IMG/VR virus record: IMGVR_UViG_3300021341_000078
Span: 1 to 63,627 of that record
Reading direction: 5' to 3' (one strand)
Length of the DNA stretch: 63,627 bases
Source of the DNA: a virus
Lineage: Duplodnaviria > Caudoviricetes
Shown: one piece after another, positions 6,787 to 63,627 of the stretch
Position numbering within the stretch: position 1 is the first letter of the stretch
Layout: every line of letters starts with the position of its first letter
Made by a program: the position numbers and the translations under genes
Notes under the pieces: model-generated
What the model saw: the letters and a program-made list of their open reading frames with translations, nothing else
Database searches by the model: none
Told to the model about the DNA's origin: nothing

Positions 6787-6791
6787 AAACT

Positions 6792-36209: not shown

Positions 36210-36293
36210 TTGGTCTATTACCGATTGACAGAGATTTGTACGGCCAGATTGACCGAAACAACTATCTTCAAATTTCAGTAAAATTAAATTGAG

Positions 36294-36324
36294 TAGAGCG
36301 TATCTAGAGTTTAGATACGCTCTA
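36294..36324. terminator. Perfect 13-bp hairpin
   Basis: TAGAGCGTATCTA-GAGTT-TAGATACGCTCTA. Confidence 0.55.
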
Positions 36325-36356
36325 TTTAAATAGAGTACGTTCCGTCAGATACTATC

Positions 36357-44219: not shown

Positions 44220-44608
44220 GTTGTTAATGTCAGATTTTCGTTGTATATTAAGATCGCTGACCAAGCGATTTTTATTTTTTCAACAAAATATTAATGATCT
44301 GAATCAGCGCTGAGGTGTTGACCAACATTGTTTTACTAGTTTGAATGTGTATCTGTTTTTCCCTTTATGTTTTACTTTGAAAGGTTGTAAAGAAAAAACG
44401 CTATAAAAGATCTTTTTTAAGAAGATTGAGATTCGTGTTGACCAATCCAAGCTTCATAAAAAAATCTCTAGAGTGATCTTTCATTGACGAACTTTCATGT
44501 ATAGACAAAAAGAAAGAACCATCGCAAAACTAAGTAGTACAAAGGGGCTTAACGCCTCTTTTTTTATTTGTATGTCAACCTCAATATAAACTTTGTGTTT
44601 ATTTTCTC

Positions 44609-44636
44609 TTGCATTTATAAACTTCACGTGTATAAT
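44609..44636 (+). promoter_or_regulatory. sigma70-type early promoter TTGCAT-N16-TATAAT
   Basis: Direct match upstream of Cro-like gene. Confidence 0.65.
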
Positions 44637-44673
44637 GTAATCGTCAATCAAGTTTTACTTTCTTACCTACCAC

Positions 44674-44862
44674 ATGTCATTCCCTTCTTACAAACAGAGA
44701 ACACAGTACGTAGTTATTGCACAAGAGTTGTGAATCTCCGTACAAACAGTTAAGTATTATTTTACTGACAGACTCAAGTGAACAGCTATTAGAAAAAAGA
44801 TTGCAAAGTACTTGAGGAAAGTGCAAATGGAAGAACTCGGTGGCTACCTAACAGATGAATAG
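44674..44862 (+). CDS. Cro-like HTH protein; recoded
   Basis: IAQELG(TGA)ISVQTVKYYF, Gly at the HTH turn. Confidence 0.65.
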
Positions 44863-44977
44863 TTTTATTTCCTAACCAAAAATACAAATGCAAGAAGTAA
44901 CAGAGATTGTAGTGATACTGCAAGACAGCGGTATACTAGACATTAGATAAACTTGTTTTAAATGTTATGCTAAAAAC

Positions 44978-45874
44978 ATGAACGTACTCTCATTGTTTGA
45001 TTGAATATCTTGTTGACAGATTGCGCTTGAACGCGCAGGAATAAAAGTAGATAAGTATTTCGCAAGCGAGATAGACAAGTATGCTATAGCCGTTACGCAA
45101 GCTAACTATCCCCACACCATACAAATAGGCTCAGTAGAAAACTGGAGGGAACGAAATTTGCCAAATATCGACTTAGTAATAGGAGGCTCTCCTTGCCAGT
45201 GATTCAGTATAGCGTGACAGTGACTAAACTTTGACGACCCTAGAAGCAAATTGTTCTTTACAATGGTAGACATTATAAATCAGTACCAGCCAAAGTACTT
45301 TTTGCTAGAAAATGTTAAGATGAAAAAAGAACGAGAAGATATTATAACTGAACATATGGAAGTAGAACCTATAGAGATAAATAGCGCCCTCGTGTCCGCT
45401 CAAAGTAGAAAAAGACTGTATTGGACTAATATAGAAGGAGTGACACAGCCAGACGATAAGGGGATATTATTAAGGGATGTGCTAGAACCAAACAACAAAG
45501 AACATCACCGCATAAGACCCATGAGGTTAATCACAAACTCAAAGAACAGAAAAAAAACTTTATGTAATCAAATAGGCATAGCTACTGACATAAGCCAAAA
45601 CTACGAGATTATGACAAGAGTATATAGCGTACTAGGCAAATGTCCAACAATAACAAAAATAGAGGGAGGGAATAGGGAGCCGAAGGTCGCTGTCAATAAC
45701 AACTCTTGGAGAAGGGTGACTCCTTTGGAGTGTGAAAGACTACAAAATGTACCTGATAATTATACCTTTGTCCCCTTTTGAAAAAGAATGATGAGTAACT
45801 CGCAAAGATACAAGATGCTTGGGAACGGGCGGACAGTGAACGTAATAAGTCACATATTCTGAAACATTAAATAA
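44978..45874 (+). CDS. DNA cytosine-5 methyltransferase; recoded
   Basis: MNVLSLFDG(TGA)ISCG, GGSPCQG(TGA)FS, LLENV, MLGNGW(CGG)TV. Confidence 0.93.
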
Positions 45875-45958
45875 AAACCTCTCCAGTAAGCGTGCAACAG
45901 AGGCTTGAGAGGTGTTACTGACTACAGTGTATTTAACCTTTACTTTTTTACAAGTGTG

Positions 45959-46591
45959 ATGCCCAAAAAAGCAAAGATAGAGCCTATAAAAATAAACATG
46001 ATGCAAGTTATTGAAGAAGTTGAACCCAAGATATACAAAGGGAAAAAGTTCAGAAGAGTTAAGTGCTTATGTGATTGCTGAAACATAAAAATAGTTAGAC
46101 GGTATGAACTCAAGCGCTGATGTATACAAAGTTGTTGATGCATTCTAAAGAGATGAATGAATACAACACATGGGCTATCCAAGAACCCTATTTATATAAA
46201 ATGGAATGGGATGATGGCTAGATGTTACAAAGAATCAAGCAGCTCTTATAATAGGTATTGAGCATTGTGAGTAAGAGTTTGCAAAGAGTGGCACAATGTC
46301 GAAAACTTTATAAAAGATATGTACCCATCGTATCTAGAACACCTTAAAGTTCACGGTAAACCGAACACAACACTAGAACGCAAGGACAACTCTAAACGAT
46401 ATTCAAAAGAAAATTGTAGACGAGCAACGATAATAGAGCAAGCAAGAAATAGAAAGTCTAACATCATGTATAAGTGAAAGTGTTTGACTGAACGATGTGA
46501 AGAACTATGACTTAATTACAAAAGGACGCACCAAAGAATAAAGAGAGACTGAAAGAATATAGAGGATGTTTTATTTGTTTTCAGTAACTAA
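45959..46591 (+). CDS. Phage HNH-like endonuclease (CxCDCG/SCGC type); recoded
   Basis: KCLCDCGN...SCGC...TLERKDN...ENCRW(CGA)AT..EQARNR. Confidence 0.85.
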
Positions 46592-46944
46592 TGAGAGAGA
46601 TTAAATTTCGTTTACGAGACTGAAAACAGATGCATTATGATGACCCAGATCGGCATCCCTGGGATTTGTGTAACCCTTATGAAGGACTAGCTGATCATCT
46701 AGTTCTAATGCAATACGCCTGACTCAAAGACTGTAACGATAAAGAGATTTACGAGGGGGATATATTGCAGCGCAAGTGAACCGATGAAAGGTTTTCTGTA
46801 ACATTTAGGGATTGAGCCTACTATACAGAATGGCACGCACGAGCAGTTACAACAGAACCGCAACTATGAGAATACTTAGAAGAGTTTGATTGCTTTGTTA
46901 TTTGAAACGTATCAGAAAACTATGATTTAGTTTATGACTACTAA
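46591..46944 (+). CDS. YopX-family protein; recoded
   Basis: MREIKFRLW(CGA)DG...LMQYAGLKD...EIYEGDIL...VIGNV. Confidence 0.9.
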
Positions 46945-47791
46945 CCATGAGACCCATAGTAGAAAAGATTGTGTACTGTCCATGAACATGAAACGAATAT
47001 GTAGCTTATGTAAGGGGAAATGGGAAGAACTTCAAGTGCCATAAAGATATTGAATATGGACGGTGCATGTGAAATAAAAACGTAAAAAAGAAAATACCGC
47101 TTGAGACCTTATTCAAAATTGATGCTATGACTTCTGTGTGTCCTTGACCTAAAAGTATGCGACATGAACAACTGATTGGAGTGTATTCAATTTTTGATCC
47201 AGATGAGAAGCGGTAAAACTGTGTGACGAGAAGAGCTATATTTTATGCTTTATACTAAATTTACTATGACTACTATTTTTGTATGTGTTGTGTACTCAGT
47301 GTTCTGAGGAGCACTAACAATTGACCCTACCTATTCTACAAGATGGTTTTATGATCACGAGATGTGAACTATCCCAGTAGAGGAATGTGTGGAGATAACA
47401 ATTTCGGAATACATTGGCGCACAACTTTGACCTATTTGGGAACAGATAGATGAGGAGCTTATCAAGCAAGGTACAGATCCAGACTCTATAACACTTGAGT
47501 AGATTGTTTTAGTTTTTAAAGAAAATAATGATTGTCAACTACAGAGCAAACTACTACGAGCTAAAACCAGTGAAAGTAGAGTCTGAGTTTGAGGCTCATA
47601 TAGTCCTAGAGGAAGAAAACCAAAGCTACCTGTTGTGGTCGTTCATTAAAATACTTTTATTTATAGTATTACTACTTATTGTGCTTGTTGCTTTCCTAGT
47701 GAAAGAGTTAGTGTTTTAGTGATATGGGGGAGTAGTGATCTTGGAACTAAAACTTTTTGTTGGAGATATTGACTTTATAAAATATATGTTT

Positions 47792-47799
47792 TATATTTG
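47792..47799 (+). promoter_or_regulatory. Bacteroidota -7 element TATATTTG; further copies at 48302-48309 (+) and 61206-61213 (-)
   Basis: TAnnTTTG consensus upstream of standard-code genes. Confidence 0.6.
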
Positions 47800-47902
47800 A
47801 ACGACCTAATAAATCATTCTCCTATATCCCTGCTCGAACTCGCTTACCAAATTGACCCAATTCGCGCCTAACGTAGGTGCAGGTATTTAAAACATTGTAG
47901 GG

Positions 47903-48259
47903 ATGTCAGTGAAAAAAGTACTTAAGAGAAAAGTAGGAAGCGTGAACGTTTACGAACTCACAGAAAAAGAACTAATAAGCCTAGAAAAGGGCTTGCCAAA
48001 GATTCTCACGATTCTGAGTCCAGTCCTTGGGTGCTTCGCCCTTGCTACCTCCTTCATACGAGATATTCTCAACAATAAACTCTCCCAACAAGATTTTATC
48101 TTATTACTTGTTACGTCTAGTTTCTTTATTGCCCTTGGGTTCTTTGTCCTGTTTTATAATCTAGTTATAAAGAGAGAAAAGCAGACATTATTATCCCAAA
48201 TACGCAAGAAAAGATCCAGATCTAACAATTCAATTGCATCTCAGAAAAGACCTAAATAA
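47903..48259 (+). CDS. Two-TM membrane protein, paralog A (standard-code moron)
   Basis: SVNVYELTEKELISLEKG...SPVLGC...TSFIRD. Confidence 0.75.
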   Translation: MSVKKVLKRKVGSVNVYELTEKELISLEKGLPKILTILSPVLGCFALATSFIRDILNNKLSQQDFILLLVTSSFFIALGFFVLFYNLVIKREKQTLLSQIRKKRSRSNNSIASQKRPK

Positions 48260-48357
48260 AACTAATTGTTGCAGACGGTTGACAATACACAATAAAAGTT
48301 TTATATTTGTTGTGTTGTCCTCTTGATTCCATGAACTGATGCAAAACTATAACGCTA

Positions 48358-48702
48358 ATGCACATTAGTCGTAACTTAGTTCGTCGAATTAGATCTGTTG
48401 ACATTTATGAAGTAACCGAAAAAGAGCTTAGTCAGCTTGAAAGAGGAACACCTCAAATAATCAATACCATAAGTCCAGTATTAGGATGTCTTGCCTTTGG
48501 GACTTCCTTTCTTCGAGATCTACTCTATCAAGAACTTTCCAGACCAACATTTATTGTTTTTACTCTTCTTGCTAGTACATCATTCGCAATAGGGTTCTTT
48601 CTAATTCTACAAAGCGTAGCTACTAGGAGGGAAAAAAGAGAACTATTCGCAAAAATTAGGGAACAGAACAAAGTCAACAATACTATTGCAACTGATAAAT
48701 AA
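48358..48702 (+). CDS. Two-TM membrane protein, paralog B (standard-code moron)
   Basis: SVDIYEVTEKELSQLERG...SPVLGC...TSFLRD. Confidence 0.75.
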   Translation: MHISRNLVRRIRSVDIYEVTEKELSQLERGTPQIINTISPVLGCLAFGTSFLRDLLYQELSRPTFIVFTLLASTSFAIGFFLILQSVATRREKRELFAKIREQNKVNNTIATDK

Positions 48703-48869
48703 TCAGTTATAGTAGTCGCGTTAAACAACTTGCCAGTTGTAACAGTGGGTATACAGTGGGAGTCCATTATTTGGGTTCAAGGGTTGCTCGCAAGAGTAAG
48801 GAGCTGTTACAGAAAACCTCATAGGCTTGGCAAGTTGTCCTATGGGGTTTTTATTTTATCTAATAAAAC

Positions 48870-49574
48870 ATGGCGAACTGAAAAAGATCTTTTGTCTTAT
48901 ACAAAGATCTATTACATACATTCCAAATGCTTACAGATGAGGAAGCAGGAAAGCTAATAAAGCATTTGCTTTCATATGTTAATGATGAAGCTCCTGTGTT
49001 AGAAGATAGGATGTTAGAAATAGTATTTGAGCCTATAAAACAATCTCTAAAGAGGGATTTAGATAAACGACAAGAGATCAAAAAAAAGAGGTCAGAGGCT
49101 TGAAAGCAAGGTTGAAGACCTAAGAAAAAGCAAAAAAAGCAAATGCTTTCTGGGAAAGCAAAAAAAGCTGTAAGTGTTAATGTAAGTGTAAGTGATAGTG
49201 TAAGTGTAATAAATAATAAAAAAGATTTAGAGAAAACCTTGGAAGATTTCTATCAGCATAGGAAGAAGATCAAATCACCTATGACAGATCTTGCTAAGAA
49301 GAAACTTTTGAACAGATTAAATGAGTTGGGTTCTACTGAACAGGAAAAGATTTTGATTCTAGAAGAATCTATACTAAACTGACGGAAAGGTGTATTTGAA
49401 CTGAAAGAAGAAAACAAGCCTAGAGATGAAGACTGGCGGCTAAGAGAATACCACGCCCTGAGAGAGGACTGGGGCAAAGCGTTTAGAGAAAAGTACTGAC
49501 CTGAGAAACACGTAGAGATCAAAGCTATCTACAAAAAGAAATGCCTAGACAGTGTTTTATATCCTGACAAATAA
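48870..49574 (+). CDS. Phage replication initiator (DUF6291-like N-terminus); recoded
   Basis: KRSFVLY...LTDEEAGKLIK...KRSEAGKQGGRP; C-term ESILNGW(CGG)KGVF. Confidence 0.8.
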
Positions 49575-49576
49575 AA

Positions 49577-50407
49577 ATGGAGAACGTACGAGACTTCAAT
49601 CAGGATCTAGAGATGGACTTTGGGAGGCTAGCAAGGTATACACGATGACTAGATGTTCTAGATAAAAAGTTTGGGAAACCAGACAACGGAGATCTGATAG
49701 TGCTAGTTGGTTATCCTTGAATGTGAAAGACAGAGTTTTCCTTCTTCATGTCTAAGCAGAACCTGAAAAAAGGTAACAGAGTTGCCTACCTATCGTTAGA
49801 GCTGACCAAGAAACAACTGATACACAGGATAGCAAGAAAGAACGCGTGAGTTTCGTACCAAGACTTCCAGAACGGAAACTATTCTGAAAGACAAATAGAA
49901 ATAATCAAACAAGAGATACAGTGGTTCAAAGACCAAAAGAAACTATGGATGATTTGAGCTAACAACGAACCAAGCATAGATGAGGTTGAAGAACTGATTA
50001 GGGAGTGTAACGATAAGTGATTCCAGATGATTGTCATTGACAACCTAGGGAAGATCGAATGATGTGCTACGGATCTAGACAGACAAGCGAAAGCAACATC
50101 GAAGCTACAGACCATAAAGAATGAGTTAAACCTAGACATAACACTCCTGCACCATCTTAGAAAACCTAGTAAGTCTGATGTATTAAAACCGTGATGAGGA
50201 TCTGCGTTTAGTGGGAGTCAAAAGATCAAAGACAACTGCTCAGTGATGGTAGAGATACGAAGAGATCTAGACCCCTACGAGACCAGACCAGAAAAGAAAG
50301 CAGAGGTGTTATTCCTGCAATACAAACAGACATGGGATGGTATAACCTGAGCACAAGAGATGTACTTCAACAGATGAGAATATAACGAGCATTATATCCC
50401 TAACTAA
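49577..50407 (+). CDS. DnaB-like replicative helicase; recoded
   Basis: Walker A VGYPG(TGA)MG(TGA)KT, YLSLEL, IVIDNL, LHHLRK. Confidence 0.85.
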
Positions 50408-50847
50408 CCACATGGTAACACGACAACAGCTAGACGACATGGAAACAGTAGCTAAAGGTATGACACTGATACATCATAGGGAGTGAGACCCCAAGAGTGT
50501 TATCAAGAACGTGCTTAGAGTTATTTCGGAGCTACACTATGCGGACATTGTAACACTGGGTAATGAAGAACTAGAGGACGTACTACTAGACTTCCAGAAC
50601 AAACTACTGGACATAGAAAACAAGTATTTAGCTCCTAAGCAATGACTATGCAATACAAGTGATACGAGATCTTTGTAGAGTGAGGAGTATACAAAGCTGA
50701 GAACTACGCTACATGACATGTTATAATAAACCACATCAACTCAGGTAAAACATCGAACATGTACGGAACAAAGAAGAAGATTACAACTTTTGACCAGATG
50801 AAAAGAGCTATAGATTTTTACTTACGTAATAGCCACTAACTATATAC

Positions 50848-51891
50848 ATGTATACTTATAAGTTTAGAATCTACCCCAATAAAGAACAGCAAGCATTACT
50901 TGCAAATAGCTTCTGATGTTGTAGGTTTGTTTACAATAAGTGAATAGCGACTCGGCAAGAGATGTACAAAAAGTGAGAAAAGGCAAACTACTATACGCTT
51001 GCGTGACTACTAAAAGAACGGAAGCAAGAGCTGCCACGATTAAAAGTCGCATACTCGCAGTCATTGCAACAGTCCTTAAAGAATCTTGACCGTGCTTACA
51101 AAAACTTTTTTGCTAAGCGTAGCAAGTATCCACGCTTCAAGAAGAAGTTTGCAAAACAATCTTGTCACTTCCCACAACACACAAGCATAGAGGGGATGAA
51201 AATCAAGTTCCCTAAACTATGACTTGTGAGGTGTAAGCTCCATAGGAGTGTAGAGGGATGTATCAAGAATATGACTATCACACGTAATCCATCTTGAAAG
51301 TACTACGTCAGTATTTGCACTGACCATGCTCCACAAAAACCACGTGGCACTGGTAGTGTGGGCATTGATGTTGGTATTAAAGAACTTGGCTACTGTAGTG
51401 ATGGTTATGTGATAAAGAATCCAAAGTTTCTCAAGAAAGCTATGAAAAGACTAAAGAAACAGCAGAGATTCATGAGTAGAAAAAAGAAGGGAAGCAGAAA
51501 CAGGAATAAACAAAGAGTAAGAGTAGCAAGACTTTATGAGAAAGTAACCAGCCAGCGTAGGGATTACCTACACAAAGTGTCTACTAGACTACAGAAGAAC
51601 TATGAGACAGTAGTAGTTGAGGATCTAAATATCAATAATATGGTAAAGAACCATTGCCTTGCACAAGCCATTATAGATGTAAGTCGATGAATGTTCTTCA
51701 CTATGCTAGACTACAAAACGAATTTAATCAAGGTAAAGCCACACAACACATCCAAGACCTGTAGTAGGTGTGGTCATGTAAAAGAAAAGCTAAGTCTTGA
51801 AGTGAGAGCGTACACTTGCGGTGCGTGCTGACTGATAATCGATAGAGACTACAATGCTAGTCTCAACATATTAGCAAGGGCTACTACTTAG
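50848..51891 (+). CDS. tnpB: IS200/IS605-family TnpB RNA-guided nuclease; recoded
   Basis: YKFRIYP...FG(TGA)CCRFVYN, PW(CGA)LK, GIDVG, VVEDL, DVSW(CGA)G(TGA)MF, TSKTCSRCG...C..CG...DRDYNA. Confidence 0.93.
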
Positions 51892-52026
51892 ATTTTAGAA
51901 CTACTCGGTAGTAACTGGTAGCGTAGGTACTACGCGAACCGAGCTTAAGCTCAACGCCTGTGGAGAGTGTAGGTTACGAACTCTATGAAGCAGGAAGCCG
52001 TCGGACTTTAGTCCTTGGTAGTTCAC
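51892..52026 (+). ncRNA. Putative TnpB omega/reRNA scaffold and IS right end
   Basis: ACGCCTGTGGAGAG...ACTCTATGAAGCAGGAAGCC, hairpin GGACTTTAGTCC, terminal GTTCAC. Confidence 0.65.
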
Positions 52027-52993
52027 ATCTTAAACAGAGTTACTAATGACGTTACAAGAAATATTAGACTTGTGGGTAGAGAAGGGGGCTGTGTATGAGT
52101 GAGTTTCTTTTGATCAAGCGCATTTGTTCTGAAAGCACATACTTCTATATGAAGACGTTGGACCTTTTAACGAAGAATACATCTCACTCTCTCTAAACGA
52201 TATACTCTACTGAGATTCCAACTTTTGGAAAGCGTTGTTTCCCCTTGACTGGCAGTATGAAACGCCAGAATATGATAGTAGGTACGTAGACCCTGTGTTT
52301 AGGGATTGAGGAGTGATTTATGTTCTAGATAACGTAAGTGACGCACCGAGAGTGCGAAGATGGAACTTTCTAAAAATGCAAAGCACTCTCCACAAAGATA
52401 AAGTCGCTTACCTATCTGATTTACTTTCTAAATAATAACGATGCCTAAAGGAAAAATAGATGGAACAAGGTTTTCTAATTATGCAATAACAGAGAAAGAG
52501 GTAAGCTTGCTATACAAGGAGTGGGTGAAAAGACTTTCTAAAGAACTAGATAAGCGCAATGAGTTCTGATTAACATTCACAGAAACACCTCCTACGGTAA
52601 AAAAGATTATAGACGGTGTTAAAAAAATTGAAGATGATTTACTTTCTAACAATACAGATGACTAAGAAACGAATACACCCTAATTGACGAACAGCACACT
52701 ATAGCACAGGAATTAGCTATACAGATTGAGTCTATATAATAAGAGACAGAGAAGGAAGATACTGGTGATGCTTTTATGAGGAACAGATAATAATAGACTT
52801 CTGATTTGAGCAAGAAGATGATAAGTATGATAAATGTGCTTACGAACTTATAGCAAACCAAGTGGTTAGAATGTTTGACAAACCCTCAATAGAACAAATC
52901 CTCAGAAAATACTTCCCAGAAAATTCTTAGCTTATTCTTTGCAAAATCTAACAACATACACACGATACAGGTGTTTATCACCTACCAAACACA

Positions 52994-53491
52994 ATGGAAG
53001 AGTTAATATCCCACGTAGATGAGAAAGATGAGCTTATAGATTACAGACCTAGATCAGAGTTTTACAAGAGTGAGATGATACACAGGACGGTATGAGTCTT
53101 GCTGTTCAACTCACTGTGACAGATGCTTATCCAGAAAAGATCTGAGAACAAAAAAGAGTCTCCTTGATTACGGTCCTGCTCAGTATCGTGAGGCGTTGGA
53201 ATAGAAGATTATGAGACCGCTGCAAAGAGAGAGACGAAAGAAGAGCTGGGTATAGACGTAGAAGTAAGAAAGTTGTTCAAGTACAAAAGAAACAGGAAAT
53301 ACTCTAACCCTTACTTCAAAGAAGTTTACGAAGCTACACACGACTGACCACTAACAATCCAAGAAGAAGAGATAGCTGAAATACTACGAGCAGACGTTGA
53401 ACGGATAGAGAAAGATATACAAGAGAACCCACACAAGTATACAGAGTGATTCAAAAAGCTTTTACAGATTTACTTACAAGATGGACGTTAA
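52994..53491 (+). CDS. NUDIX hydrolase (IDI-like); recoded
   Basis: IHRTV..LLFNSLGQMLIQKRS...PG(TGA)LW(CGG)S...AAKRETKEELGI. Confidence 0.85.
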
Positions 53492-53870
53492 AAAGATTAA
53501 TGAAGAAATAAAGAAGTTATGATCAACAGATAATATTTCTGACTGACACCACACATTCAAGGAGCTATACGAACATAGACACGCACTGCTTATATCCTTA
53601 ATCAACAACACTAATCGAGACTGGATAAAAAGCTACATACACTACGACTATGAGATGTGGAAATGATGGTTTATAGTTCAGGGAATGTGTCCTACACAGA
53701 ATGACCAGTTCAACCAAATATCCTACCATTTACCAAACATGTATCGAGACAAAGTACGCTGTAAGGAAATAGCGAAAGCAGAGCGACGAGATTGACACAC
53801 AGCAGAGGATGTTGTATTCAGACTTATGCAACACAACACTAAGCCCCTTGGAGTTTTAGGCAACTTTTAG
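53481..53870 (+). CDS. WDGH-motif phage protein; recoded
   Basis: SDGHHTFKELYEHR...QISYHLP...W(CGA)DG(TGA)HT. Confidence 0.8.
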
Positions 53871-53883
53871 ATCTCTACCTACA

Positions 53884-54246
53884 ATGATCAGAATAGTTCT
53901 ACAGTGAAGACCACTATCCACTCAACACATCTACTGACAACGCGGTAGGATTAGATATATGAAGAAAGAAGCAAAACTCCTGAAAGCATCATATATCGAA
54001 CAAGCGAGGTCACAATACGCATGAAAGTGTCTCGAAACACCGCTTTCCGTAGAGATCAAAATCTATTTCTGAGACAGAAGGAAGCGTGACTGGGATAATT
54101 ATCACAAGCTGACGATGGATGCCTTAGAATGAATTTTATACAAGGACGATAGCCAAATTCAGATTGCACTCGTTACGAAAGCGTACGACAAGGAAAACCC
54201 ATGCACTGTTTTAGACTTTATAGAGCTATGTGACATAGGAAAATAA
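53884..54246 (+). CDS. rusA: RusA-like Holliday junction resolvase; recoded
   Basis: RKRDWDNYHKLTMDALEGILYKDDSQI. Confidence 0.85.
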
Positions 54247-54518
54247 AGCTGAATACACAGAAGATAAAATACTGATGTAACTTCTGTGAGGAGTGTGGGT
54301 GTAAGAAGCATCGACTACCGTTCCAGATCCACCACGTAGTCTACAGATCTGAGGCTTGACGACACAAGAACATAAACCACCCAGATAACCTATTGATAGT
54401 ATGTGCGCCTTGCCACCAGAAGATACACTCTAACAAGAAGGCGTATCAAGCAAAACGAGTAAAAAAGAGAGACTTATGGAGAGTGTTCCCAGATGTGTTA
54501 CATGACAAGTACAAGTAG
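54228..54518 (+). CDS. HNH endonuclease; recoded
   Basis: CEECG...IHHV...NLLIVCAPCHQKIH. Confidence 0.75.
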
Positions 54519-54543
54519 AAAGTTTTATTACCTAAACTTTTTT

Positions 54544-54972
54544 ATGAAAGAGAGGCGAGTTCCAGTCACTTGATATGAGTGAAGTTATGAAGTGAGCAAT
54601 TTATGAAGAGTTAGATCCCTAGATAGATATTCTACTTCACACCAACGCGATTCTCTAGGAAATTTCTACACTAGACGCGTTAAACAAACTTGAAGGATGC
54701 TAAAGCAACAAGTCAACAACTGAGGTTATGCAAGAGTAAGACTTATGAAAAATGGGAAGTGAAAATATACTATGGTGCATAGAATAGTATACTTCTCATT
54801 CAATAAAGTCCCTTTAGCTAAAAACAACAACATTGGTATATGTTGTATTTGCCACAAAGACGACAACAGACTTAACAATAGCATTAATAACCTTTTCTAC
54901 GGTACGTACAGAGATAATGTTAGAGACATGATGAAAAAATGAAGAGAAAACTTCTTTTGAAGAAACAATTAG
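54544..54972 (+). CDS. NUMOD4-HNH homing endonuclease; recoded
   Basis: ERW(CGA)VPVTGYEGSYEVSNLGRVRS...VHR...CHKDDNRLNN..NNL. Confidence 0.88.
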
Positions 54973-55712
54973 GTGACGAGAGAGGTCGCTAAACAAGCGG
55001 GCATTGAACCAAAAGTTAGACCCTAAAAGCAAAAAAGACTAGCGTGGAATATATCTGTGTGTATAATGATAACATATGAGTTGGTCTATAACAGATGGTG
55101 TGGGAAACAGGGCTGATTGACCCCTGAAAAAGTAAACATCCTAGATCAGTGTTTACGTCTACAATATAATCGTCACTATGGCAACAATAAGCAGACCCAC
55201 ATCATCTCCTATAGATCAGCTCAACCCTTTATCCTTTACGTGTGTTGTTATGCCTCTACCCAAACAAGCTAAAAAGGCTCTCAGTGAGTTGAGAGCGAAG
55301 ATTGCAGGAGCAAGTTATTGTAATGCTGGATGGATTCAGAGAGAGAGATGGAGAATGAGAAGAACAACCCCAAGAACCAAAGATGTACATGTAGAGCTAC
55401 AAGAGGTGAATACAAGCCTCTACCAGAACCTATCTACAAACGACTACCTTTATTCCCTTATAGAGCACTAAGATGACTGACAGAAATCAGCTAATCGGTG
55501 AAGCGTATGAGAAGATAACAAAGGACTTGTGAACTATGATAGACTTCCTAGGTGATGGGATCTACCAGATAGTACTAGATATACTTGAATGAAAGAAAAC
55601 TATCGAGCTATTAGACCTGCTTGGAAAGTAATTACGTGAGCTAGACACCTCCTTAAACTGTCCTTAGCCTAGGCACGCTTTACACTGCCCTTTTATACTT
55701 ACCATTACTACA

Positions 55713-56240
55713 ATGACAGATTCATTTTTGCCTGAAAACTATTCAGAGCCGTCAAACAGTGACTTCTTGAAGCTAGAGGCTGGTACTACAAAGATTAGAT
55801 TCTTGCAATCTCCAGTTATCTCTTGGGAGCTTTGGGAAGATAAAGAAGACGGAACAGAGTGACGCAAAGTTGTTAGAGGAAAGAAAGAGGAAGGACAACC
55901 TATTCCACCTAGCTCTAAGCTAGTATGGACTTGTATCGTTTGGAACCATAACGACCAACGTATGCAGGTATGGAGCGTAGGACAAAAGACTATCAGAGAT
56001 CAGATCGTAAGCATTAGTAGAGACGCAGACTTTGGAGACCCACGTAACTTTGACATTAAGATCAAGAAGGAAGGGGAGAAGATGAAAACTACTTACACTA
56101 TCAACCCGCTACCTCCTACAGAACTAGGAGAGGAAGCAAAGAACACAATCATGCAAACACAGGTAAATATAGACGCATACTTTGAGGGAGAGAATCCTTT
56201 CTGAACAGGGAGTGACGACGACTCTGACGTTCCTTTTTAA
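55713..56240 (+). CDS. Probable single-stranded DNA-binding protein; recoded
   Basis: FLKL...KIRFL...DIKIKKEG...TTY; acidic tail SDDDSDVPF is reached only if TGA 56202 is read through. Confidence 0.65.
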
Positions 56241-57150
56241 TCACTAGGGGCTTCGTGCCCCTTTTATTTTTGAAATATACTTATGTATAAGTTGATAATC
56301 GACTCTCTAAAAAAGATGGAAAAGGATGTAATCAAAGACACAACAATCAGCATCTTAGACGAGTACTTGTACCAATACAACCTTTTGATAAACGAAAAGA
56401 TAGATCTTATTAAAGAATACTCCTTAAATAAATGAGACTATGAGGACAAAGTGAGAAAAAAAGTGAGCCAACTGCTAAGTGATAGGATCGTAAAGCACAA
56501 GACAAAAGCGGAAACCATAGCAGAAGAGGAGCATAAAGAACTATGAGAAAAAATAAGAAGAGACAGTATAGTCATAGAAGAGATAGACACATTTTCTAGG
56601 AAGACATTAAATAACTACCATCATGGGAAGTCTAAATTAAAGAGTGACTTCGATATGGATAAGCAGGTAAACAATATAGCTAGATTTCAAGAATGACACT
56701 AATTGCTTTACATCTTACGTATTATACAATGTGAATTATTATTGCACTATGAATCGTTGCGTTGATCTTTTTATCGTTTAAGCTCTCGTGTAGCAGTTGC
56801 AATACACAAGCGATCAACCCACAACAACCAAAGATTACTCCAGCAAAGACCACTGTTTTCACTAAGTGATGAAGTAACCTAAAAGCACCTAAGAAAAGAA
56901 AGACCCCTAAGACTGACAAGCTGAATGAGAACAGAGCACAAATCGAATTACAGATACTAGCAGGTTGGACCAATGAAGATATCGCAAAGTACTACTGAGT
57001 AGGTAGTTCGACTGTTCAGAGATGGAAAGTTGCTAGAGGGATAAAGAGACTATCTAAAAGACAAATAGAGAAGGGGAAAGAGATGCTAGGGGAGAGATAT
57101 GATGTAAAGAAGTTCCGTAAACAAGCTAAAGAAGCAGGATTAATGCAGAC

Positions 57151-57178
57151 TTGACAAATGTAATTCCAGAGTTATAAT
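57151..57178 (+). promoter_or_regulatory. Consensus sigma70 promoter TTGACA-N16-TATAAT
   Basis: Perfect -35 and -10 hexamers. Confidence 0.75.
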
Positions 57179-57620
57179 ATAGATACTTTACTTCTAACAC
57201 ATACAAAAATGCCTACACGATTCAAGTACCTGACTGTCTTTTGTCTATGATTAGCTCTGTGAGTTTGGAGCATGAGTCTTGTATCAGCAGACTACAGCCT
57301 TATCCCTACTCCTGAACAAGCTGACTTTGTTTACTGACTAGAGATGGAGTACAGAAACACTATCCAACAAACTATTGCTCAAGCTAGATACTACCAAGAG
57401 TATCAAGACAACTGCGAGCTAGAGGAGGCGTTCTTTACGTTCGATAGAAAGAAGATTACTTGTGAGGAGATAGAAGATCACTTCCGTTCTAAGTACTTCG
57501 AGATCGCAAACCTTGCTTATAAGCTAGATGGGTATTGTGATGAGTACTTTGGGAGATCTGGTAAAGCATGTAGCATGTATGTAGACATGTATAGAAGCTA
57601 GTTTTATTCTTACAAACAAA

Positions 57621-58397
57621 ATGAGAAAGTATACACCGCATATAATTACAGTACTAATACTAGTACTTATCGTATGAACAATACTGAATCGACCAACACA
57701 AGAAAATAAATCACAGCTAGAGAAGCTAGTAGAAGAAAGAGCTATCCTAACAGAACAAATACAACAGATAGAAGCAACAGAACAAGAGATACAGAAAGCT
57801 ATTGAACAGGAGTGTAAGAAGATGGATATAGAATGTGCAGTAGATAGCATACCAGAGAAAGTAGAGCAAGTTGTTGAAGCTAACGGAAAGGTAGAGGTAG
57901 AGGAGCAAGAACAGTCACCCACCAAGGAAGAGAAAGAGCTGATGGAGCAGATATGCAAACTAGGAACAAAGAATGGTAAAACAACTATCCTATGTGATAA
58001 CTGGGAGCTGTACTACCAACTAACTGAAATAAGTGCCAACAAGTGAGTTCCATTCAAACTTATGTTAGGTATTACTATGGCAGAAAGCCACATAGGTACA
58101 AACCGAGCACCAAAAGAAGAGTGCTCAAAGTCTAAGAACTGGGCATGACTAAAAGGAGCAAAGAAAGACGATGGATCTGTTATATGGTATACAGTAGCAG
58201 GCAAAGGTATAGAGGGGTGTTACTTGTTTAAGTTCGACTTAGTTACAGACTTCCGAAGCCATTTTGCAAACACACTACTAACCTATCAGAACGCTTGTTG
58301 ACGAGATCCAGCATGTATCTCGGTAAGATATGTGGGAGGACAAGGAACAAAGAAGAGATGGGTACAAGCAGTTAATTTATTCTATACTAATGAGTAA
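57621..58397 (+). CDS. Membrane-anchored coiled-coil protein with lysozyme/glucosaminidase-like domain; recoded
   Basis: N-terminal TM; GVPFKLMLGITMAESHIG...NWAGLK. Confidence 0.55.
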
Positions 58398-59006
58398 TGT
58401 GACAGCTAGTTTTTTGATCTAAAGAGGCAATAGAAAAGCTAATCGAGAGCTTAAAGAAAACAAGTCTCTCCTTAAGTAGACACTACTGTACTTGTGACCA
58501 CTGTGATTTAAATGGTCTTATAGAACAAGCCTCTTGCTCCTCGTGCGACACTATACTTTACGGTTCTCGGTGAAGTCCAGAACATAGAGAGGCAGAAATC
58601 GTACTAAAAGAGATAATGGAAGAGTCAGATAAGGTGCGTGAAAAGTGATGAGCATTGCTTTGTAAAAAATGTGATTCACAGATAACTCGTTTAGATTGGT
58701 CAGAAAAGGAAAGTCTTCTAAGATCCTACATAGGCGATATAGAGGAAAACAAAATTACTCTTTTTTTAGATACTAACAACAAGTAATGAAGAAGTTTCTA
58801 CTAATACGATTGCCAATCCTTTTGTGATCGTTTCTTGGAGTAATGCTTGCTTTAAAGTTTGAGCCAGTTAGACGGTCTACCTGAGAGAAGATTTGATGGA
58901 GTGTGTATGAAAGAGAAAGTGGAAAATTTGTGTGACATGCTATATATAAGTGACCTCATAAGGGTTTTCACTGACCAAAGGAAGATTTAGATAGTAATAA
59001 TAAGTA

Positions 59007-59360
59007 ATGATAGACCCACAGAAAACGATAGACCGAAACCTTGCTTTTGGAAATAAACAACAGTTTGATACAGGGAAGTATGATTGATACCTAGATTACA
59101 GCATGATGAGAGAGGAGATACGTGAGTTCTTGCTAGCCTCAGATAGTGACGATAAGGTAGAAATGGTAGATGCCTGTATAGATGTGATATTTGTAGCTCT
59201 ATGAACGCTACATAAGCTATGATTAGATGCAGAGTCGATCACTAGAGCGTATGATGAGGTGTGTAGGTCAAACGATAGCAAGATCGGAGCTAAGAAGAGA
59301 GATGGGAAAGTAACTAAGGGAGAAAACTACTCACCACCTAACCTAAATTTTGTTCTTTAA
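59007..59360 (+). CDS. MazG-like NTP pyrophosphohydrolase; recoded
   Basis: EEIRE...VEMVDACIDVIFVALG...EVCRSNDSK...DGKVTKGENY. Confidence 0.85.
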
Positions 59361-60901
59361 ATATACAAGATGTCTAGATTCAAACTTAACACACCTAGAG
59401 AAGTACACGAGAACCCAAACAGCAAGTTCCAAGCTGGTCTAAATAAGCTCAGAGAGCTTTGAGCAGAAGAATTATTACAAACCTTCACTGAGATGCGTGA
59501 GAACCAGAGAGACGCTTGAACACGAACTGAGACAGCTGATACTGCTGCTGGTCTGATCTACGATAAAATAGAGGAGGAAAAGAGCAAGAGAAAGTAGTGG
59601 CTGTTTCCATTTTGGAACATACCACAGCAACCCTTTTACCTTAGTATTACAGATGGAATTACTTACTTGATACGTATTAGCAAATTGCTTCATTTTTTCT
59701 CCACTTATTGGCTACGATAGCCCTTACTCTGAGTGGCGTTATTGTCCTGAGTTTGATGCTCCTTGCGTAGAGGAAACATTCTATAGGTTTAGAGACTGAG
59801 TATATGACTGTAGAACAGACGGTGAACGACTAGCGCATTGTGCCGATTCAGAATAACCTTATTTATTTAGTATATGGGGATGAAGAAAGTATACAGATGA
59901 TGTGAAATAGAGATAACAAGAGAATATGACGAAATCTACCACTCTATCTTTTCGAAAGACTGACGAGAGCTTGCTAGTTGATTCGGTCGGTGAGATACCA
60001 TACGGTCTGTTCGATGACCATGTCAACTTAGAGTTGATTCATTCTTAGATGAATGCTGATGAGACTTTGAAAAATATGAGGAGATGCGATACGGAAAACC
60101 ATTTTAGTTTGCAGAACAATCATTGTCTAAAGTAGATTTATCCTACCCTCACACATGGAAAAGCTCCCAACCCCACAACCTAAAAAGAGACTATTCAAGA
60201 AGCAAGAGTATCAACAGAGGCTTGCCGAAGTATTGAAGTGAAGCTGTCGGCAATGCGGTAGACTATCTAACAACCTAACAGGAGGACTATGTCCTGACTG
60301 CTTATAATACTAACCACAAACAATGTCCTATAAAAGAAAGACAGTAAACGTAACACACTTCTTTTGGTTCAACTGAAAGATACATAGAGTAGAGGACGCT
60401 TATAACTTATGACATAAAAGACAAAAGCCTATAATCACATGGCTAGAAGAGTATAACAAGGCAACACAAGAGTACTCAGGCATAGGAGATAAAAGAAAGC
60501 GCGAAAAGATTAGAAAACTAGAAAGTAAAATACGGTGATACCTGGGAAACTAGTTTTACTTTACATATAGAAATGAAACCAGACTTTACACGAGACGAAG
60601 CAATTACAGGAATGAGGAATCGGTTTATAGTATGAGTAGCAGTAGGTATACTTATATCTACGCTGGCTAGTTTTATTGTTTAATGTATAGACATGAGTAC
60701 CGTATGAGAAGAAATACTTGTAGAACTAGAAAGATGTAAAATGTTACTTTCTATGTATCAAGAAATATGAGTAGAAGGAGTTTTTTGAGCAACACTTATA
60801 TCAGAGTGAATTAATAAAGCAGAAAAGGCGATTAGTGAATGAAATATAGTAGAAATAATCAAGTCGTATGAGGAACTAAAGTCCTTTGAGTAGATAAAAA
60901 G

Positions 60902-60931
60902 AAAGCCCCCTAGGAAACTAGGAGGCTCTTT
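60902..60931. terminator. Bidirectional terminator at the recoded/standard-code boundary
   Basis: A-run, AGCCCCCTAG-GAAA-CTAGGAGGCT, T-run between convergent blocks. Confidence 0.6.
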
Positions 60932-61158
60932 TTTAGTTCAGATTCGAGACGTTCTTGGAACAGCTCTGTCAGGTTCTCTGAGGCTTGCGCTTCACTGTAG
61001 GGAATCCTGACAATCAAGCAATCATCCTCATAGATAACCTTATCTACTTCATCTATACATTCTAGTATAACGAATAGATCTTGTTCAAACTGAGCTTCTA
61101 AGAACTCTACGTCAATCAGATCAAAGAGATCTTCTTGTACTGCTCTCGTAATTGTCAT
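60910..61158 (-). CDS. Acidic hypothetical protein (standard code)
   Basis: 82-aa ORF preceded by TATATTTG. Confidence 0.6.
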   Translation of the reverse strand: MTITRAVQEDLFDLIDVEFLEAQFEQDLFVILECIDEVDKVIYEDDCLIVRIPYSEAQASENLTELFQERLESELKKSLLVS

Positions 61159-61214
61159 TTGTGTTGTGATTTAGTTAGCATGTGCGCCACACTCTCCTCA
61201 CCTTACAAATATAC

Positions 61215-61748
61215 CTACTGATCACCGAGATTCAAAATAGGTCTCGCTAGCTTGTAACGTATAAGCTCACCTTGTGGTTTGTCTGGACGAGAGAGGTTTT
61301 CTTCACTGAGTGGATACTTGCCTATCTCAATGACCTCTAACTCCTTGGCTTTCTGTACTGTCCCTTTGTAGATAGTAACATACTCAAGGTTCATCCTTTT
61401 TAGATACTTAGGCTTGTATCTCTTGGATTCCCCTTGGATTGTAATACCGATTTTCGCTGTTTCACCTTTGTAGAGGTAGAATGTGCCGTTTGGACAATGT
61501 AAACACTGATAGTAACCGTTTCGTCTAGCAACTAAGCGGTATGTCTCAGCGCTTTCTCTCATCCTTCTCACCTTGTCGTTGAGTTGGGCTTTTCTCTTCT
61601 CCTTTAGTTCGTACGTTCCGTCTGGATTGCGTTTTACGTAGTCATCAAATGACTCGTAAGCGAAGTAAAGTAATGCGAATAGCAGGAATAAGATTGGTAG
61701 GGTTCTACTCTTGCCTACTGGTGTAGGGCTTTCTGTTTTCTTAACCAT
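61215..61748 (-). CDS. Membrane-anchored protein with GIY-YIG-like motif (standard code)
   Basis: TM, then YRL...CxxC...KIGIT...RY...E. Confidence 0.55.
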   Translation of the reverse strand: MVKKTESPTPVGKSRTLPILFLLFALLYFAYESFDDYVKRNPDGTYELKEKRKAQLNDKVRRMRESAETYRLVARRNGYYQCLHCPNGTFYLYKGETAKIGITIQGESKRYKPKYLKRMNLEYVTIYKGTVQKAKELEVIEIGKYPLSEENLSRPDKPQGELIRYKLARPILNLGDQ

Positions 61749-61873
61749 ACTGCCTTGAATTTTGGCGGTTTACGAATATGATTTATTCGTAAGTACTGCC
61801 CTCAAGGTAGTGCGTGACTATTGGAGAGGGGCGTTTCTGCTCCTCTCTTTCACAATAAACATATAACAAAAAA

Positions 61874-62335
61874 ATGGAAAAGAAAAGAGTACCTAAACGT
61901 GTTGCAGAAATCCAAGTAACCTACTCAGCTAAAATTAAAAAAGAAGAACGGCATCAAGTCAAATGTAGCCTAGACATCTACCAGATAGTCATGTCTGAGA
62001 TCTATGGTGATGATATTGAGTACGTAGAGACGTTCTACGTTATAATGCTTAATAGATCTAGTGAGATATTGGGTTATAAACAAGTTAGTAAAGGAGGATC
62101 ATCGGGCACGGTTGTCGATGCAAAGGTGGTATTCGCGCCAGCGTTAAAGTGTCACGCGAGTAGTATACTCTTAGTACACAATCACCCTTCATCTAGCCTA
62201 TACCCTTCACAACCTGACAAGAACCTAACAAAGAAACTAGTAGACGCTGGGAAGCTACTTGACGTACTTGTCTTAGACCATTTGATCGTAACTATGGAAG
62301 GCTATTACTCCTTCGCAGATGAGGGTCTTATTTAG
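61874..62335 (+). CDS. radC: RadC-like JAB-domain protein (standard code)
   Basis: E..Y...LNR, HNHPS...PS..D, VLDHLI, YYSFADEG. Confidence 0.92.
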   Translation: MEKKRVPKRVAEIQVTYSAKIKKEERHQVKCSLDIYQIVMSEIYGDDIEYVETFYVIMLNRSSEILGYKQVSKGGSSGTVVDAKVVFAPALKCHASSILLVHNHPSSSLYPSQPDKNLTKKLVDAGKLLDVLVLDHLIVTMEGYYSFADEGLI

Positions 62336-62344
62336 CAATTATCT

Positions 62345-62370
62345 ACTGACGGACTACCGTCAGTTTTTTA
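62345..62370 (+). terminator. Intrinsic terminator between radC and integrase
   Basis: ACTGACGG-ACTA-CCGTCAGT followed by T-run. Confidence 0.7.
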
Positions 62371-63627
62371 TTATAGCATATCTATCGCGTTCTGTAGTTT
62401 CTCTCTATCTCTCACTATACCCAAATACTTATTGGTAGTCTTTATTGAAGCATGATCCATAAGAGTTTTAACCGTCATTATGTCTACACCTTTTGATAGC
62501 GCTAGGGTAGGGGCTGTGTAACGTCCACTGTAGAAGCTAAAGTATCTACCATCGCTGAAACCTATCTTTTTGGAGACCCTCTTATAGCACTTATAGGAAT
62601 TGTCTCTCTCTCTTTTTGCCCTTCTCTCTGTCTCTACTGGATCTTTATCGAAACCATTTAGTATAGGTAGTATGTACTTACCTTTTGAGTCTATCTTTTT
62701 CAGTATCTCTAGTGCAGCCTCCTTCACAGGTTTCCCCAGCTTGTTCTCGAACCCAGTCTTTGATCTACTATACTTCCAAATGTCGTTTGTGATATCATCC
62801 CAACGCAACCGAGCTAGGTCTATAAGGTTCACCCCAAAAAAGAAATATGAGAGAACCCAGTAGGACATGTACTTCCATTCAGTGTCTGAGAAGGTGTTGT
62901 TGTAGTAATAGAAAACAACGCTTTCTTTTTCTTCCTCAGTCAGATCTCTAATTCTTTTCTTATTGGTTTTTTTCTTCCCTTTTCTTTTGCGCTCGTTTAT
63001 ATCATACCCGTTAGGGTTGTAGACTGTCTTAAAAGGGTTGTGCTTGGCTTCTATTATTCCCTCCTTGAGTGAGAAGGATATCAGTGTTTTTGTCCACTTT
63101 AGATAGTTGAAGCCGTTCATATCTCTCTCGTCGAAAGACTTTGTAAGTTTATTTATAGAGGACAGATTGAAGTCGCGTATTCGTTTATTGTCCAAGTCTG
63201 CTTTCTCAAATACAGGTATGAGTGCTAGATAGTTTTTTGCAGAAGATACATCACCAGACTCCACCTTGCGGTTGTATATGTCCATAGCAAACTCTCCTAA
63301 GCGCTTATCTTCTACCTGCTCAGTAGATCTATGCTTAGCTAACAGGCTAGAGAACTCTTTATAATCAAAGCTATCTATGAAATTATTCTGGTAGACGTGG
63401 TAGCAATCATCAAGGTACTGTCTGATATAACCATTCTTTTTCTGTCGACCTCTTTCGTGTACATTATAGCATCTTCTTTCAGAGTCCCAATTCTCTTTTA
63501 AGCAGGAATAGCCCTTGATCCTTTTCTTAGTGTTGTTACCTCCATACCTGATCTGTATGCAGACAGGGTGTGCACCATTTCTTAAAGTAACATGTTTGTC
63601 AAGGTAAGTGACAAAAGTAACCTTCAT
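62371..63627 (-). CDS. Tyrosine integrase, Bacteroidota type (standard code)
   Basis: N-terminal arm-binding-like HPVCIQIRY; GVNLIDL, RSKTG, FYSGRYT, MDHASIKTTNKYL. Confidence 0.92.
   Translation of the reverse strand: MKVTFVTYLDKHVTLRNGAHPVCIQIRYGGNNTKKRIKGYSCLKENWDSERRCYNVHERGRQKKNGYIRQYLDDCYHVYQNNFIDSFDYKEFSSLLAKHRSTEQVEDKRLGEFAMDIYNRKVESGDVSSAKNYLALIPVFEKADLDNKRIRDFNLSSINKLTKSFDERDMNGFNYLKWTKTLISFSLKEGIIEAKHNPFKTVYNPNGYDINERKRKGKKKTNKKRIRDLTEEEKESVVFYYYNNTFSDTEWKYMSYWVLSYFFFGVNLIDLARLRWDDITNDIWKYSRSKTGFENKLGKPVKEAALEILKKIDSKGKYILPILNGFDKDPVETERRAKRERDNSYKCYKRVSKKIGFSDGRYFSFYSGRYTAPTLALSKGVDIMTVKTLMDHASIKTTNKYLGIVRDREKLQNAIDML

Follow-up and report, generated by a model that had tools for sequence, protein, structure and literature searches.

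The viral genome record IMGVR_UViG_3300021341_000078 (Duplodnaviria; Caudoviricetes) is 63,627 bases long, and the window analysed here covers the whole record held for this virus genome. It carries genes in two genetic codes on one continuous molecule. The larger part, which we call the core, is a complete tailed-phage genome of ~51 kb that yields proteins only under the code of Absconditabacteria; around it, and at two places inside it, lie genes without in-frame TGA, among them a tyrosine integrase and a RadC-like protein at the right end (the module, 60910-63627). The two parts have a common composition, and the backbone formed by the TGA-free genes has its kin in Bacteroidota. That the window represents a single mobile element, continuous, uniform in composition and written in two codes, which works in two hosts, is our best explanation as a whole, and we give it an even chance of being right.

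Two codes along one contig

Under the standard code, ~10,900 residues fall within open reading frames (ORFs) of at least 100; when TGA is taken as a sense codon, long ORFs emerge. Genes were counted from a greedy list of 97 ORFs (TAA and TAG as stops), 15 short or overlapping ORFs having been dropped beforehand, and gene-by-gene TGA counts reveal six code switches along the contig. The parts on which the argument turns are the following.

9436-60893, strand not given: phage core; 70 genes, 64 with in-frame TGA, 381 TGA against 623 GGN codons; CGA and CGG read as tryptophan
60902-60929, strand not given: terminator-like hairpin of 12 pairs (-17.9 kcal/mol, z = -2.98) between the last core gene (end 60893) and orf82
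60910-61158, minus strand: orf82; no family found; without a Gly codon, hence its lack of TGA is uninformative
61215-61748, minus strand: orf177; no family found; 0 TGA among 11 Gly codons; one CGA, codon 76
61874-62335, plus strand: RadC-like JAB protein, 153 amino acids; PF04002, 124.2 bits; 0 TGA; one CGG, R26
62371-63627, minus strand: tyrosine integrase of IntCTnDOT type, 418 amino acids; PF00589 41 bits and PF17293 25.2 bits

Which code the core uses can be read from its large terminase (37633-38970), aligned here with 42 distinct homologues on contigs of standard-code phages after removal of duplicates and of sequences below 33% identity. Glycine is the majority residue at 11 of the 15 TGA positions, and at two of them it is present in 42 of 42 homologues. 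The codons CGA and CGG (together CGR) fall in tryptophan or aromatic columns at four of five positions: CGA277 is W in 42 of 42, CGG57 is W in 30 of 42, the column of CGG175 holds W27, Y9 and F6, and that of CGA280 holds L18, W13 and F7. Arginine columns of the terminase are written AGA, AGG or CGT. When CGR is read as tryptophan instead of arginine, Pfam scores (in bits) rise for NUDIX (52.9 to 64.5), WDGH (85.8 to 92.4), DUF6291 (87.1 to 93.0), Terminase_3 (30.7 to 36.1), the TNB domain of TnpB (63.3 to 67.2) and DnaB_C (by 0.3), and the net gain is ~30 bits over nine domains. These columns and scores support a core code with TGA as glycine and CGA and CGG as tryptophan, as in Absconditabacteria. 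For that group Shulgina and Eddy (eLife 2021, PMC8629427) describe UGA as glycine, CGA and CGG as tryptophan and AGA as the main arginine codon; the portion of their paper drawn on here also gives the lack of a tRNA-Arg(ACG), which permits the reassignment of CGA.

Core genes that could be identified encode a lysis peptidase, tail and head proteins, the small and large terminase, a DnaB-like helicase and a C5 methylase, together with NUDIX, WDGH, RusA, SSB, HNH nuclease and TnpB proteins. Early and replication genes are recoded as densely as late ones, and one ORF has 1158 codons with 40 TGA. All 58 loci with a terminase match have 0 in-frame TGA and at most 44% identity, so that no recoded relative of this terminase was found among them; the capsid protein had no match among viral contigs.

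One explanation that would need only a single, standard-code Bacteroidota host is that the phage switches the code of the cell at induction by factors that the window does not show. Recoded Garnet prophages of Prevotella do have a standard-coded integrase (Borges et al., bioRxiv 10.1101/2021.08.26.457843), and block-wise dual coding is known in phage genomes (10.1101/2022.06.29.495998). We nevertheless consider such a switch very unlikely. The core has no tRNA gene, even at E-values up to 1 (the sole tRNA of the window, for Ala(GGC), lies outside it), and no release factor, synthetase or other code-change gene was seen among the core genes scanned. With early and replication genes as recoded as late ones, nothing could start the switch; CGA and CGG would have to turn from arginine to tryptophan against the tRNAs of the host while CGT stays arginine; and all three codons match a known cellular code. 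As CGA and CGG have two meanings on one DNA and the core holds no tRNA, a simple suppressor cannot explain the arrangement.

The module is different in its codons. The four genes have 830 codons with 41 GGN and no TGA (P ~3e-9 at the core rate, where TGA makes up 38% of glycine-type codons), the integrase alone 0 TGA among 22 Gly codons, and all four stop at TAA or TAG. An earlier reading made from the sequence only had said that integrase, RadC and neighbours lack TGA and had pointed to one CGG codon in each of the two named genes. Both statements hold, the codons being 273 of the integrase (62809-62811) and 26 of RadC (61949-61951). Its further claim that arginine fits at both holds strongly for one and weakly for the other. 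Arginine is found at RadC R26 in all 26 of 26 sequences of the alignment (the window protein and 25 selected out of 120 listed matches), including proteins of Saprospiraceae, Lewinellaceae, Cesiribacter, Sphingobacteriaceae and Bacteroidales. At integrase R273 the column varies (R,H,R,L,K,L,L,L,F,F,L,L,P): the nearest relatives show R, H or K, the more remote ones L or F. Arginine fits weakly there, the Pfam integrase score falling from 41.0 to 38.4 bits with tryptophan, a difference of 2.6 bits. The three CGA codons of the module (integrase 61 and 149, orf177 76) are at variable or untestable positions, and column 149 of the integrase has W or Y in three relatives. A module written in a code that avoids TGA, with CGG read as arginine, is supported by these counts and columns.

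The sequence-only reading had treated the integration module as the standard-coded part. The module is indeed free of TGA, but so are the genes that fill 1-9455 (a protein of no known kind, a flavin amine oxidase, a coiled-coil protein, a type IV coupling protein and a Replic_Relax relaxase) and, within the core, two islands. Among Gly-type codons TGA numbers 0 in the right module (41 codons), the left set (99) and the inner islands (48), that is, 0 of 188 in total. The features outside the module are these.

1-627, minus strand: first gene; a run of 16 threonines after the N-terminal part; no family found
2314-3642, plus strand: flavin amine oxidase with a lipoprotein-like signal; standard-coded
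4537-4611, minus strand: tRNA-Ala(GGC), the only tRNA in the window
4762-6786, minus strand: coiled-coil membrane protein, 674 amino acids, TGA-free, divergent from the coupling protein
6792-8549, plus strand: type IV coupling protein (DUF87, T4SS-DNA_transf, TraG-D_C), TGA-free
8565-9455, plus strand: Replic_Relax relaxase, TGA-free, 3' of the coupling protein
34742-37610, plus strand: inner island on the opposite strand, with ORF 34742-35515, a GYF_2 membrane protein and a PqiA-like protein
39102-40136, plus strand: inner gene, 344 amino acids; 4 CGA in polar or basic columns, Trp columns written TGG (150 homologues aligned)

The island at 34742-37610 has no TGA except one in a doubtful N-terminal extension. 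In the amine oxidase, CGA433 is arginine in 117 of 119 homologues, CGA48 stands in a column that is mostly lysine, all five invariant tryptophan columns are written TGG, and the Pfam score drops from 272.1 to 265.1 with CGR as tryptophan. By their codons and alignments, the genes around the core and those of the two inner islands use CGA and CGG as arginine.

What had been proposed from this arrangement was a reciprocal lock, with integration only in one host and lysis only in the other. Judged by its codons, the lock is one-way: a standard-code cell cannot read the core, with its 381 in-frame TGA, whereas the module has none. As the integrase is free of TGA and its invariant arginines R225, R288, R336 and R369 are encoded by AGA, AGA, AGG and CGT, an Absconditabacteria cell would make it full-length, with three changes at variable positions. 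The Arg-to-Trp substitutions predicted for such a cell would occur, five of them in the module, but the proteins would be of full length and only the change in RadC would hit an invariant residue.

Several other features of the core may be recorded here. The TnpB gene (IS605 OrfB, 50848-51996) is in the core code, with 8 TGA, and CGR fits tryptophan in its TNB domain; a weak RAGATH-18 match follows (51957-51996; 31.3 bits, under the gathering score, E = 0.059). The core encodes three or more HNH endonucleases, and next to the C5 cytosine methylase it has a restriction-endonuclease-like gene (45959-46591, 54201-54972, 43797-44219). At 47903-48259 and 48331-48702 (plus strand) stand two adjacent small membrane paralogues with the motif VYE(L/V)TEKEL(I/S)(S/Q)LE(K/R)G, one with 0 TGA and the other with 1.

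The word TTTA is found 14-26 nucleotides ahead of the ATG in 54 of 70 core genes, with a peak at -21 to -19 and often within the end of the preceding gene, and at -26 to -14 in 1 of 11 standard-coded genes (Fisher p = 2.5e-5). For the core it may act as a promoter or initiation signal. Its use as a marker of the host was dropped, as a cruder scan finds moderate rates in some standard-code phages and Bacteroidota loci. A Shine-Dalgarno word is found in neither the core nor the standard-coded genes and does not tell the two apart. Nor does the Bacteroidota -7 promoter word TAnnTTTG give a signal, being found upstream in 2 of the 12 standard-coded genes and in 8 of the 70 of the core.

The standard-coded genes as a probable mobilizable backbone

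The integrase was said to be of Bacteroidota type, and its relatives bear this out. All 14 confirmed relatives in named genomes are from Bacteroidota (Saprospiraceae, Lewinella, Neolewinella, Cyclobacteriaceae and Odoribacter; mostly Saprospiraceae), with 29-46% identity, and they sit among standard-code surroundings. They came from a search of named-genome contigs with the family alignment; the integrase sequence alone found none there. The close subfamily had no match among metagenome contigs, and the family merely two distant ones (25-28%) among viral contigs. It is a small family, with 13 proteins in a large protein collection. PF00589 covers residues 270-402 of the window protein (cut-off 27.1 bits) and the arm-DNA-binding domain PF17293 residues 8-74 (cut-off 22.6), and K290, R369, H392 and Y401 are invariant in family alignment A1. 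When aligned to the XerC-like 4a8e, all 13 of 13 members appear to have N267 at the place expected for the first catalytic arginine, with the invariant R288 downstream; Y366 stands at the expected first His of the HxxR box in the same 13 members.

Smyshlyaev et al. (2021, PMC8138268) describe integrases of the IntCTnDOT subgroup on conjugative and mobilizable elements of Bacteroidetes, in which the first arginine is often absent and a conserved arginine lies downstream. The window integrase is like these, as far as the cited part of that paper goes, in its arm-binding and catalytic domains, its Bacteroidota distribution and its apparent lack of a first-box arginine with a conserved one further on. 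Unlike the elements of that subgroup, the one that this integrase ends carries a phage in another code.

Among the RadC matches listed, six of the seven with a named organism are Bacteroidota and the other is flagged as contamination. E52, H102, H104 and D115 are in invariant columns (26 of 26), and we take these residues to be the JAMM metal-binding motif. A Bacteroidota type for both RadC and the integrase is supported by these comparisons of proteins. Relatives of the two, 71% for the integrase and 78% for RadC, stand together on a contig of 44 kb that may be a sister element. No match was found for orf82 or orf177 in Pfam, PHROGs or NCBIfam.

The module does not have the look of a phage lysogeny module and seems rather to be part of a mobilizable backbone: an IntCTnDOT-type integrase stands with RadC, and their partners are the coupling protein and relaxase at 6792-9455, so that integrase (62371-63627), coupling protein (6792-8549) and relaxase (8565-9455) are all on one element. 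The first 13.7 kb of an island in a Lewinella metagenome-assembled genome (L097, G004:C20:1-20000, also L006) hold relatives of the integrase (42%), the coupling protein (28% over 511 residues) and an adjoining Replic_Relax protein (29%); an ORF of 1884 amino acids is also found on that island. In a Saprospiraceae genome (G003) a relative of the coupling protein lies ~19 kb from one of the integrase, if the coordinates of contig and record agree. The module is most plausibly one end of an integrative mobilizable element, with other parts at 4762-9455 and the phage core nested between, and the standard-coded set as a whole would be the backbone of such an element of Bacteroidota (Saprospiraceae-type) origin.

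Two features of the left flank point to Bacteroidota DNA. The amine oxidase is 70% identical to a protein of an Aureispira metagenome-assembled genome, and most of its organism-named relatives are Bacteroidota. The tRNA-Ala is 100% identical over 78 nucleotides to that of G026, one of 201 genomes sampled from the family of Neolewinella (Saprospiraceae), the next best match being 92%; G026 shares only the tRNA with the window, its flanks not being shared and its codon style being different. Both features suggest this origin; they are no proof of a place in a chromosome, since the left flank and the element are alike in composition.

At 4062-4384 (minus strand), beside the 3' end of the tRNA-Ala, is a C-terminal remnant of a second tyrosine integrase, with a frame change and two TGA; it is a sign of an older integration at the tRNA. 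Two similar small ORFs (1625-1759 and 1922-2077, minus strand) have a leader ending in KGG and then a short acidic tail. They resemble paired precursors of leader peptides. The idea that they are Bacteroidota GG-leader peptides is unsupported, NCBIfam giving no match.

Continuity, composition and a possible two-host working

The window begins with a base of the stop codon of a minus-strand gene and closes with the opening letter of the start codon of the integrase; it looks like a region excised at gene borders, and it has no terminal repeat. The left set and the core meet with convergent gene ends that overlap by 20 nucleotides (9436-9455). Four seawater metagenome runs contain 56000-63627. 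In run X1 a Logan contig of 31,393 bases, from a different assembler, spans 44000-63627, and in run X2 a contig of 6,794 bases bridges the junction at 60893/60910, over which depth is even in all four runs. The same RadC and amine oxidase proteins occur on 6 contigs, and a contig of 103,730 bases has both. A chimera, in which assembly falsely joined a Bacteroidota element to a phage of Absconditabacteria, could draw on the metagenomic origin of the record, and runs X1 and X2 may be the record's own source. Such a chimera is nonetheless hardly credible, as six code switches would demand six false joins, a second assembler reproduces the junction, its depth is even in four runs, the same two proteins recur on 6 contigs, and the composition is uniform.

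The Logan contigs of X1 (record 1) and X2 (record 9) both stop exactly 110 nucleotides past the integrase start. This shared stop beyond 63627 would fit a repeat or variable junction, for example an attachment (att) site.

Composition was compared by relative synonymous codon usage (RSCU), with Gly and Arg codons excluded and 62 other loci as comparison, and by tetranucleotides. The core and all TGA-free genes correlate at r = 0.904 in RSCU, while the 62 other loci reach 0.808 at most, with a median of 0.276. The right module has r = 0.805 with the core, at the 11th percentile of equal-sized core samples, and 0 of 62 other loci match this at that size; the left set has r = 0.880, at the 3rd percentile of core samples. 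In tetranucleotides the module correlates with the core at r = 0.737, the mean of 2.7-kb core pieces being 0.736, and the left set at r = 0.80, within the range of core pieces. The resemblance of the module to the phage core, noted by eye in the sequence-only reading, is therefore real: a common style rich in CTA, ATA and AGA is found in both, and the module is not a compositionally separate island. The long residence in the element that was suggested on the same ground is supported by the shared composition, which implies that the standard-coded genes are not recent additions.

The Lewinella island is a low-GC (guanine plus cytosine) island, with 0.38 against 0.44-0.45 elsewhere in that genome, and correlates with the window at r = 0.63 in tetranucleotides and r = 0.70 in codons. 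General regions of G004 and G005 do not have the window's composition; only this island does, so the style belongs to mobile elements and not to the sampled chromosome.

The evidence now bears on the question of where the DNA resides. The whole region could belong to a genome or phage of Absconditabacteria, in which the standard-coded genes are Bacteroidota cargo, either translated with Arg-to-Trp changes or unused. The core requires that code, 0 of 12 cargo genes end in TGA, so that their products would be full-length, the invariant arginines of the integrase avoid CGR, and Liu et al. (mBio 2023, PMC10746230) report code-neutral phages from these bacteria. Even so we judge it unlikely. In codon and tetranucleotide style the cargo is like the core and hence not recent, and a long stay under TGA as glycine should push TGA towards 38% of Gly codons, against the 0 of 188 observed. 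Moreover, CGR stands at invariant or nearly invariant arginines in RadC and the amine oxidase, the long standard-coded ORFs are intact, and the tRNA-Ala identical to that of a Saprospiraceae-family genome and the decayed integrase resemble a Bacteroidota chromosome. The prophages of these bacteria are, in the portion of Liu et al. cited, all densely TGA-coded.

A phage of Absconditabacteria may also have been trapped by accident in a Bacteroidota mobilizable element, as a silent passenger with no further life cycle. Such an accident would account for a core that is nested between backbone genes and lacks, as far as its genes were scanned, an integrase of its own, and the trio of integrase, coupling protein and relaxase does occur without any phage in the Lewinella island. 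We find it quite improbable: without selection, 51 kb of ORFs would not stay free of TAA and TAG, the equal composition of core and backbone argues against a recent accident, standard-coded genes stand inside the core too, and the junctions are tight, with the 20-nucleotide overlap at 9436-9455 and the shared terminator at 60902-60929.

This brings us back to an element that works in two hosts. In a standard-code Bacteroidota cell only the backbone would be translated, to integrate, maintain and perhaps mobilize the element, and the phage half would be silent, with nearly every core gene stopping at TGA; the phage half would run only in a cell with tRNAs of the Absconditabacteria type. The standard-coded genes are free of TGA, have CGR at conserved arginines, keep long ORFs intact and share the composition of the core, which argues for long co-residence and for selection for standard-code translation; the core keeps its ORFs intact under the other code alone, and this argues for selection in a cell of the Absconditabacteria type. 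The element would have to sit in a Bacteroidota genome and to reach an Absconditabacteria cell. That it is kept in the one and active as a phage only in the other has, we think, about equal chances of being right and of being wrong.

The following points weigh against this working or against parts of the evidence for it. In the terminase, CGA102 stands in a variable column, and CGR as tryptophan lowers three Pfam scores (methylase by 1.4 bits, Peptidase_C39_2 by 1.1 and HTH_OrfB by 0.7). Three core genes (15061-16479, 27397-28275 and 30643-31881, minus strand) have 1 TGA each, against 49, 21 and 28 GGN, and no CGR; TGA poverty alone can therefore arise inside the core. (The last is likely the major capsid gene, and some structural genes, perhaps those with the highest expression, seemingly avoid TGA.) For the module, the evidence from CGR consists of one strong codon (RadC R26) and one weak one (integrase R273). 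All 12 standard-coded genes stop at TAA or TAG and never at TGA, which also fits genes meant for reading in a cell with TGA as glycine. The inner islands have r = 0.633 with the core in RSCU, below all 500 core samples. RadC is beside the integrase in 0 of 14 Bacteroidota loci, and three relatives of the amine oxidase are labelled as non-Bacteroidota (Pseudomonadales, Chloroherpetonaceae and Gemmatimonadota). No direct repeat or common word of at least 12 nucleotides, as expected of att repeats, was found between the two junctions or around the tRNA; the right end of the element falls outside the window, and no search for an origin of transfer was made. The residence of the element in a Bacteroidota chromosome is a presumption and not a proven fact. 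We know of no route between Absconditabacteria and Bacteroidota cells.

A more specific version would have the element shuttle between a marine Saprospiraceae-type bacterium and an Absconditabacteria epibiont that lives on it, silent in its carrier and lethal to the epibiont. The carrier would spread it by means of the standard-coded integrase, coupling protein and relaxase, with the passenger harmless and translationally silent; its DNA would get there when the epibiont takes up host DNA, through mobilization or in a virion, and the phage half would then be readable. This is speculative, and we think it quite unlikely in so definite a form. If true, the carrier would hold a weapon against its own parasite, and the element would name a host lineage for marine Absconditabacteria.

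Comparison with known code-split phages

Phages with an integrase in the code of the host and lytic genes in another were known before, but in each case a single stop codon was recoded and the switch was proposed to be a suppressor tRNA. The closest examples are the TAG-recoded Garnet and Topaz prophages of Borges et al. (10.1101/2021.08.26.457843), in which the integrase avoids the recoded stop; Garnet is found in Prevotella, and the authors propose that the genetic code separates lysogeny from lysis. The present element is like these in being a putative recoded prophage whose integrase belongs to the minority of genes that lack the recoded codon (64 of 70 core genes with TGA; integrase with 0 TGA among 22 Gly codons), and one of those examples has a Bacteroidota host. 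It is unlike them in several respects. The prophages of the cited part of that preprint involve one stop, TAG, whereas here TGA is glycine and, in addition, CGA and CGG mean tryptophan in one set of genes and arginine in the other; here no suppressor tRNA or code-change gene was found, and early genes are recoded too; and the standard-coded set is the putative backbone of a mobilizable element with a coupling protein and a relaxase.

Liu et al. (PMC10746230) describe phages of Absconditabacteria and Gracilibacteria that use code 25 or are code-neutral. Some are targeted by spacers of other phyla and may meet both standard-code bacteria and those in the candidate phyla radiation (CPR), the avoidance of TGA being seen as compatibility with both codes. 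Our core has the dense in-frame TGA as glycine of these phages. Unlike them, which in the cited portion of the paper are wholly in code 25 or wholly neutral, the window is a mosaic and adds the conflict over CGA and CGG. The gut crAss-like phages of the Mgcod preprint (10.1101/2022.06.29.495998) also have genomes split into blocks of different codes, but in the part cited theirs differ in the stop codon only. The code given by Shulgina and Eddy (PMC8629427) was described, as far as the cited text goes, in cellular genomes; here it is found in a phage core joined to standard-coded genes. A search of the full-text literature, supplements not covered, found no paper on a phage with CGA and CGG as tryptophan or on a mosaic of code 25 and the standard code.

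For annotation, this means that one record may need more than one code, and we recommend that CGA and CGG be considered besides TGA. The core and the standard-coded genes seem to require separate translation systems, so that a life cycle across phyla, between a CPR epibiont and a Bacteroidota cell, becomes directly testable, and the window offers a sequence-based lead to the unknown hosts of marine Absconditabacteria. In comparison with the systems above, what is new is the conflict over a family of sense codons within one molecule, with no suppressor tRNA aboard, with early as well as late genes recoded, and with the backbone of a mobilizable element as the standard-coded half.

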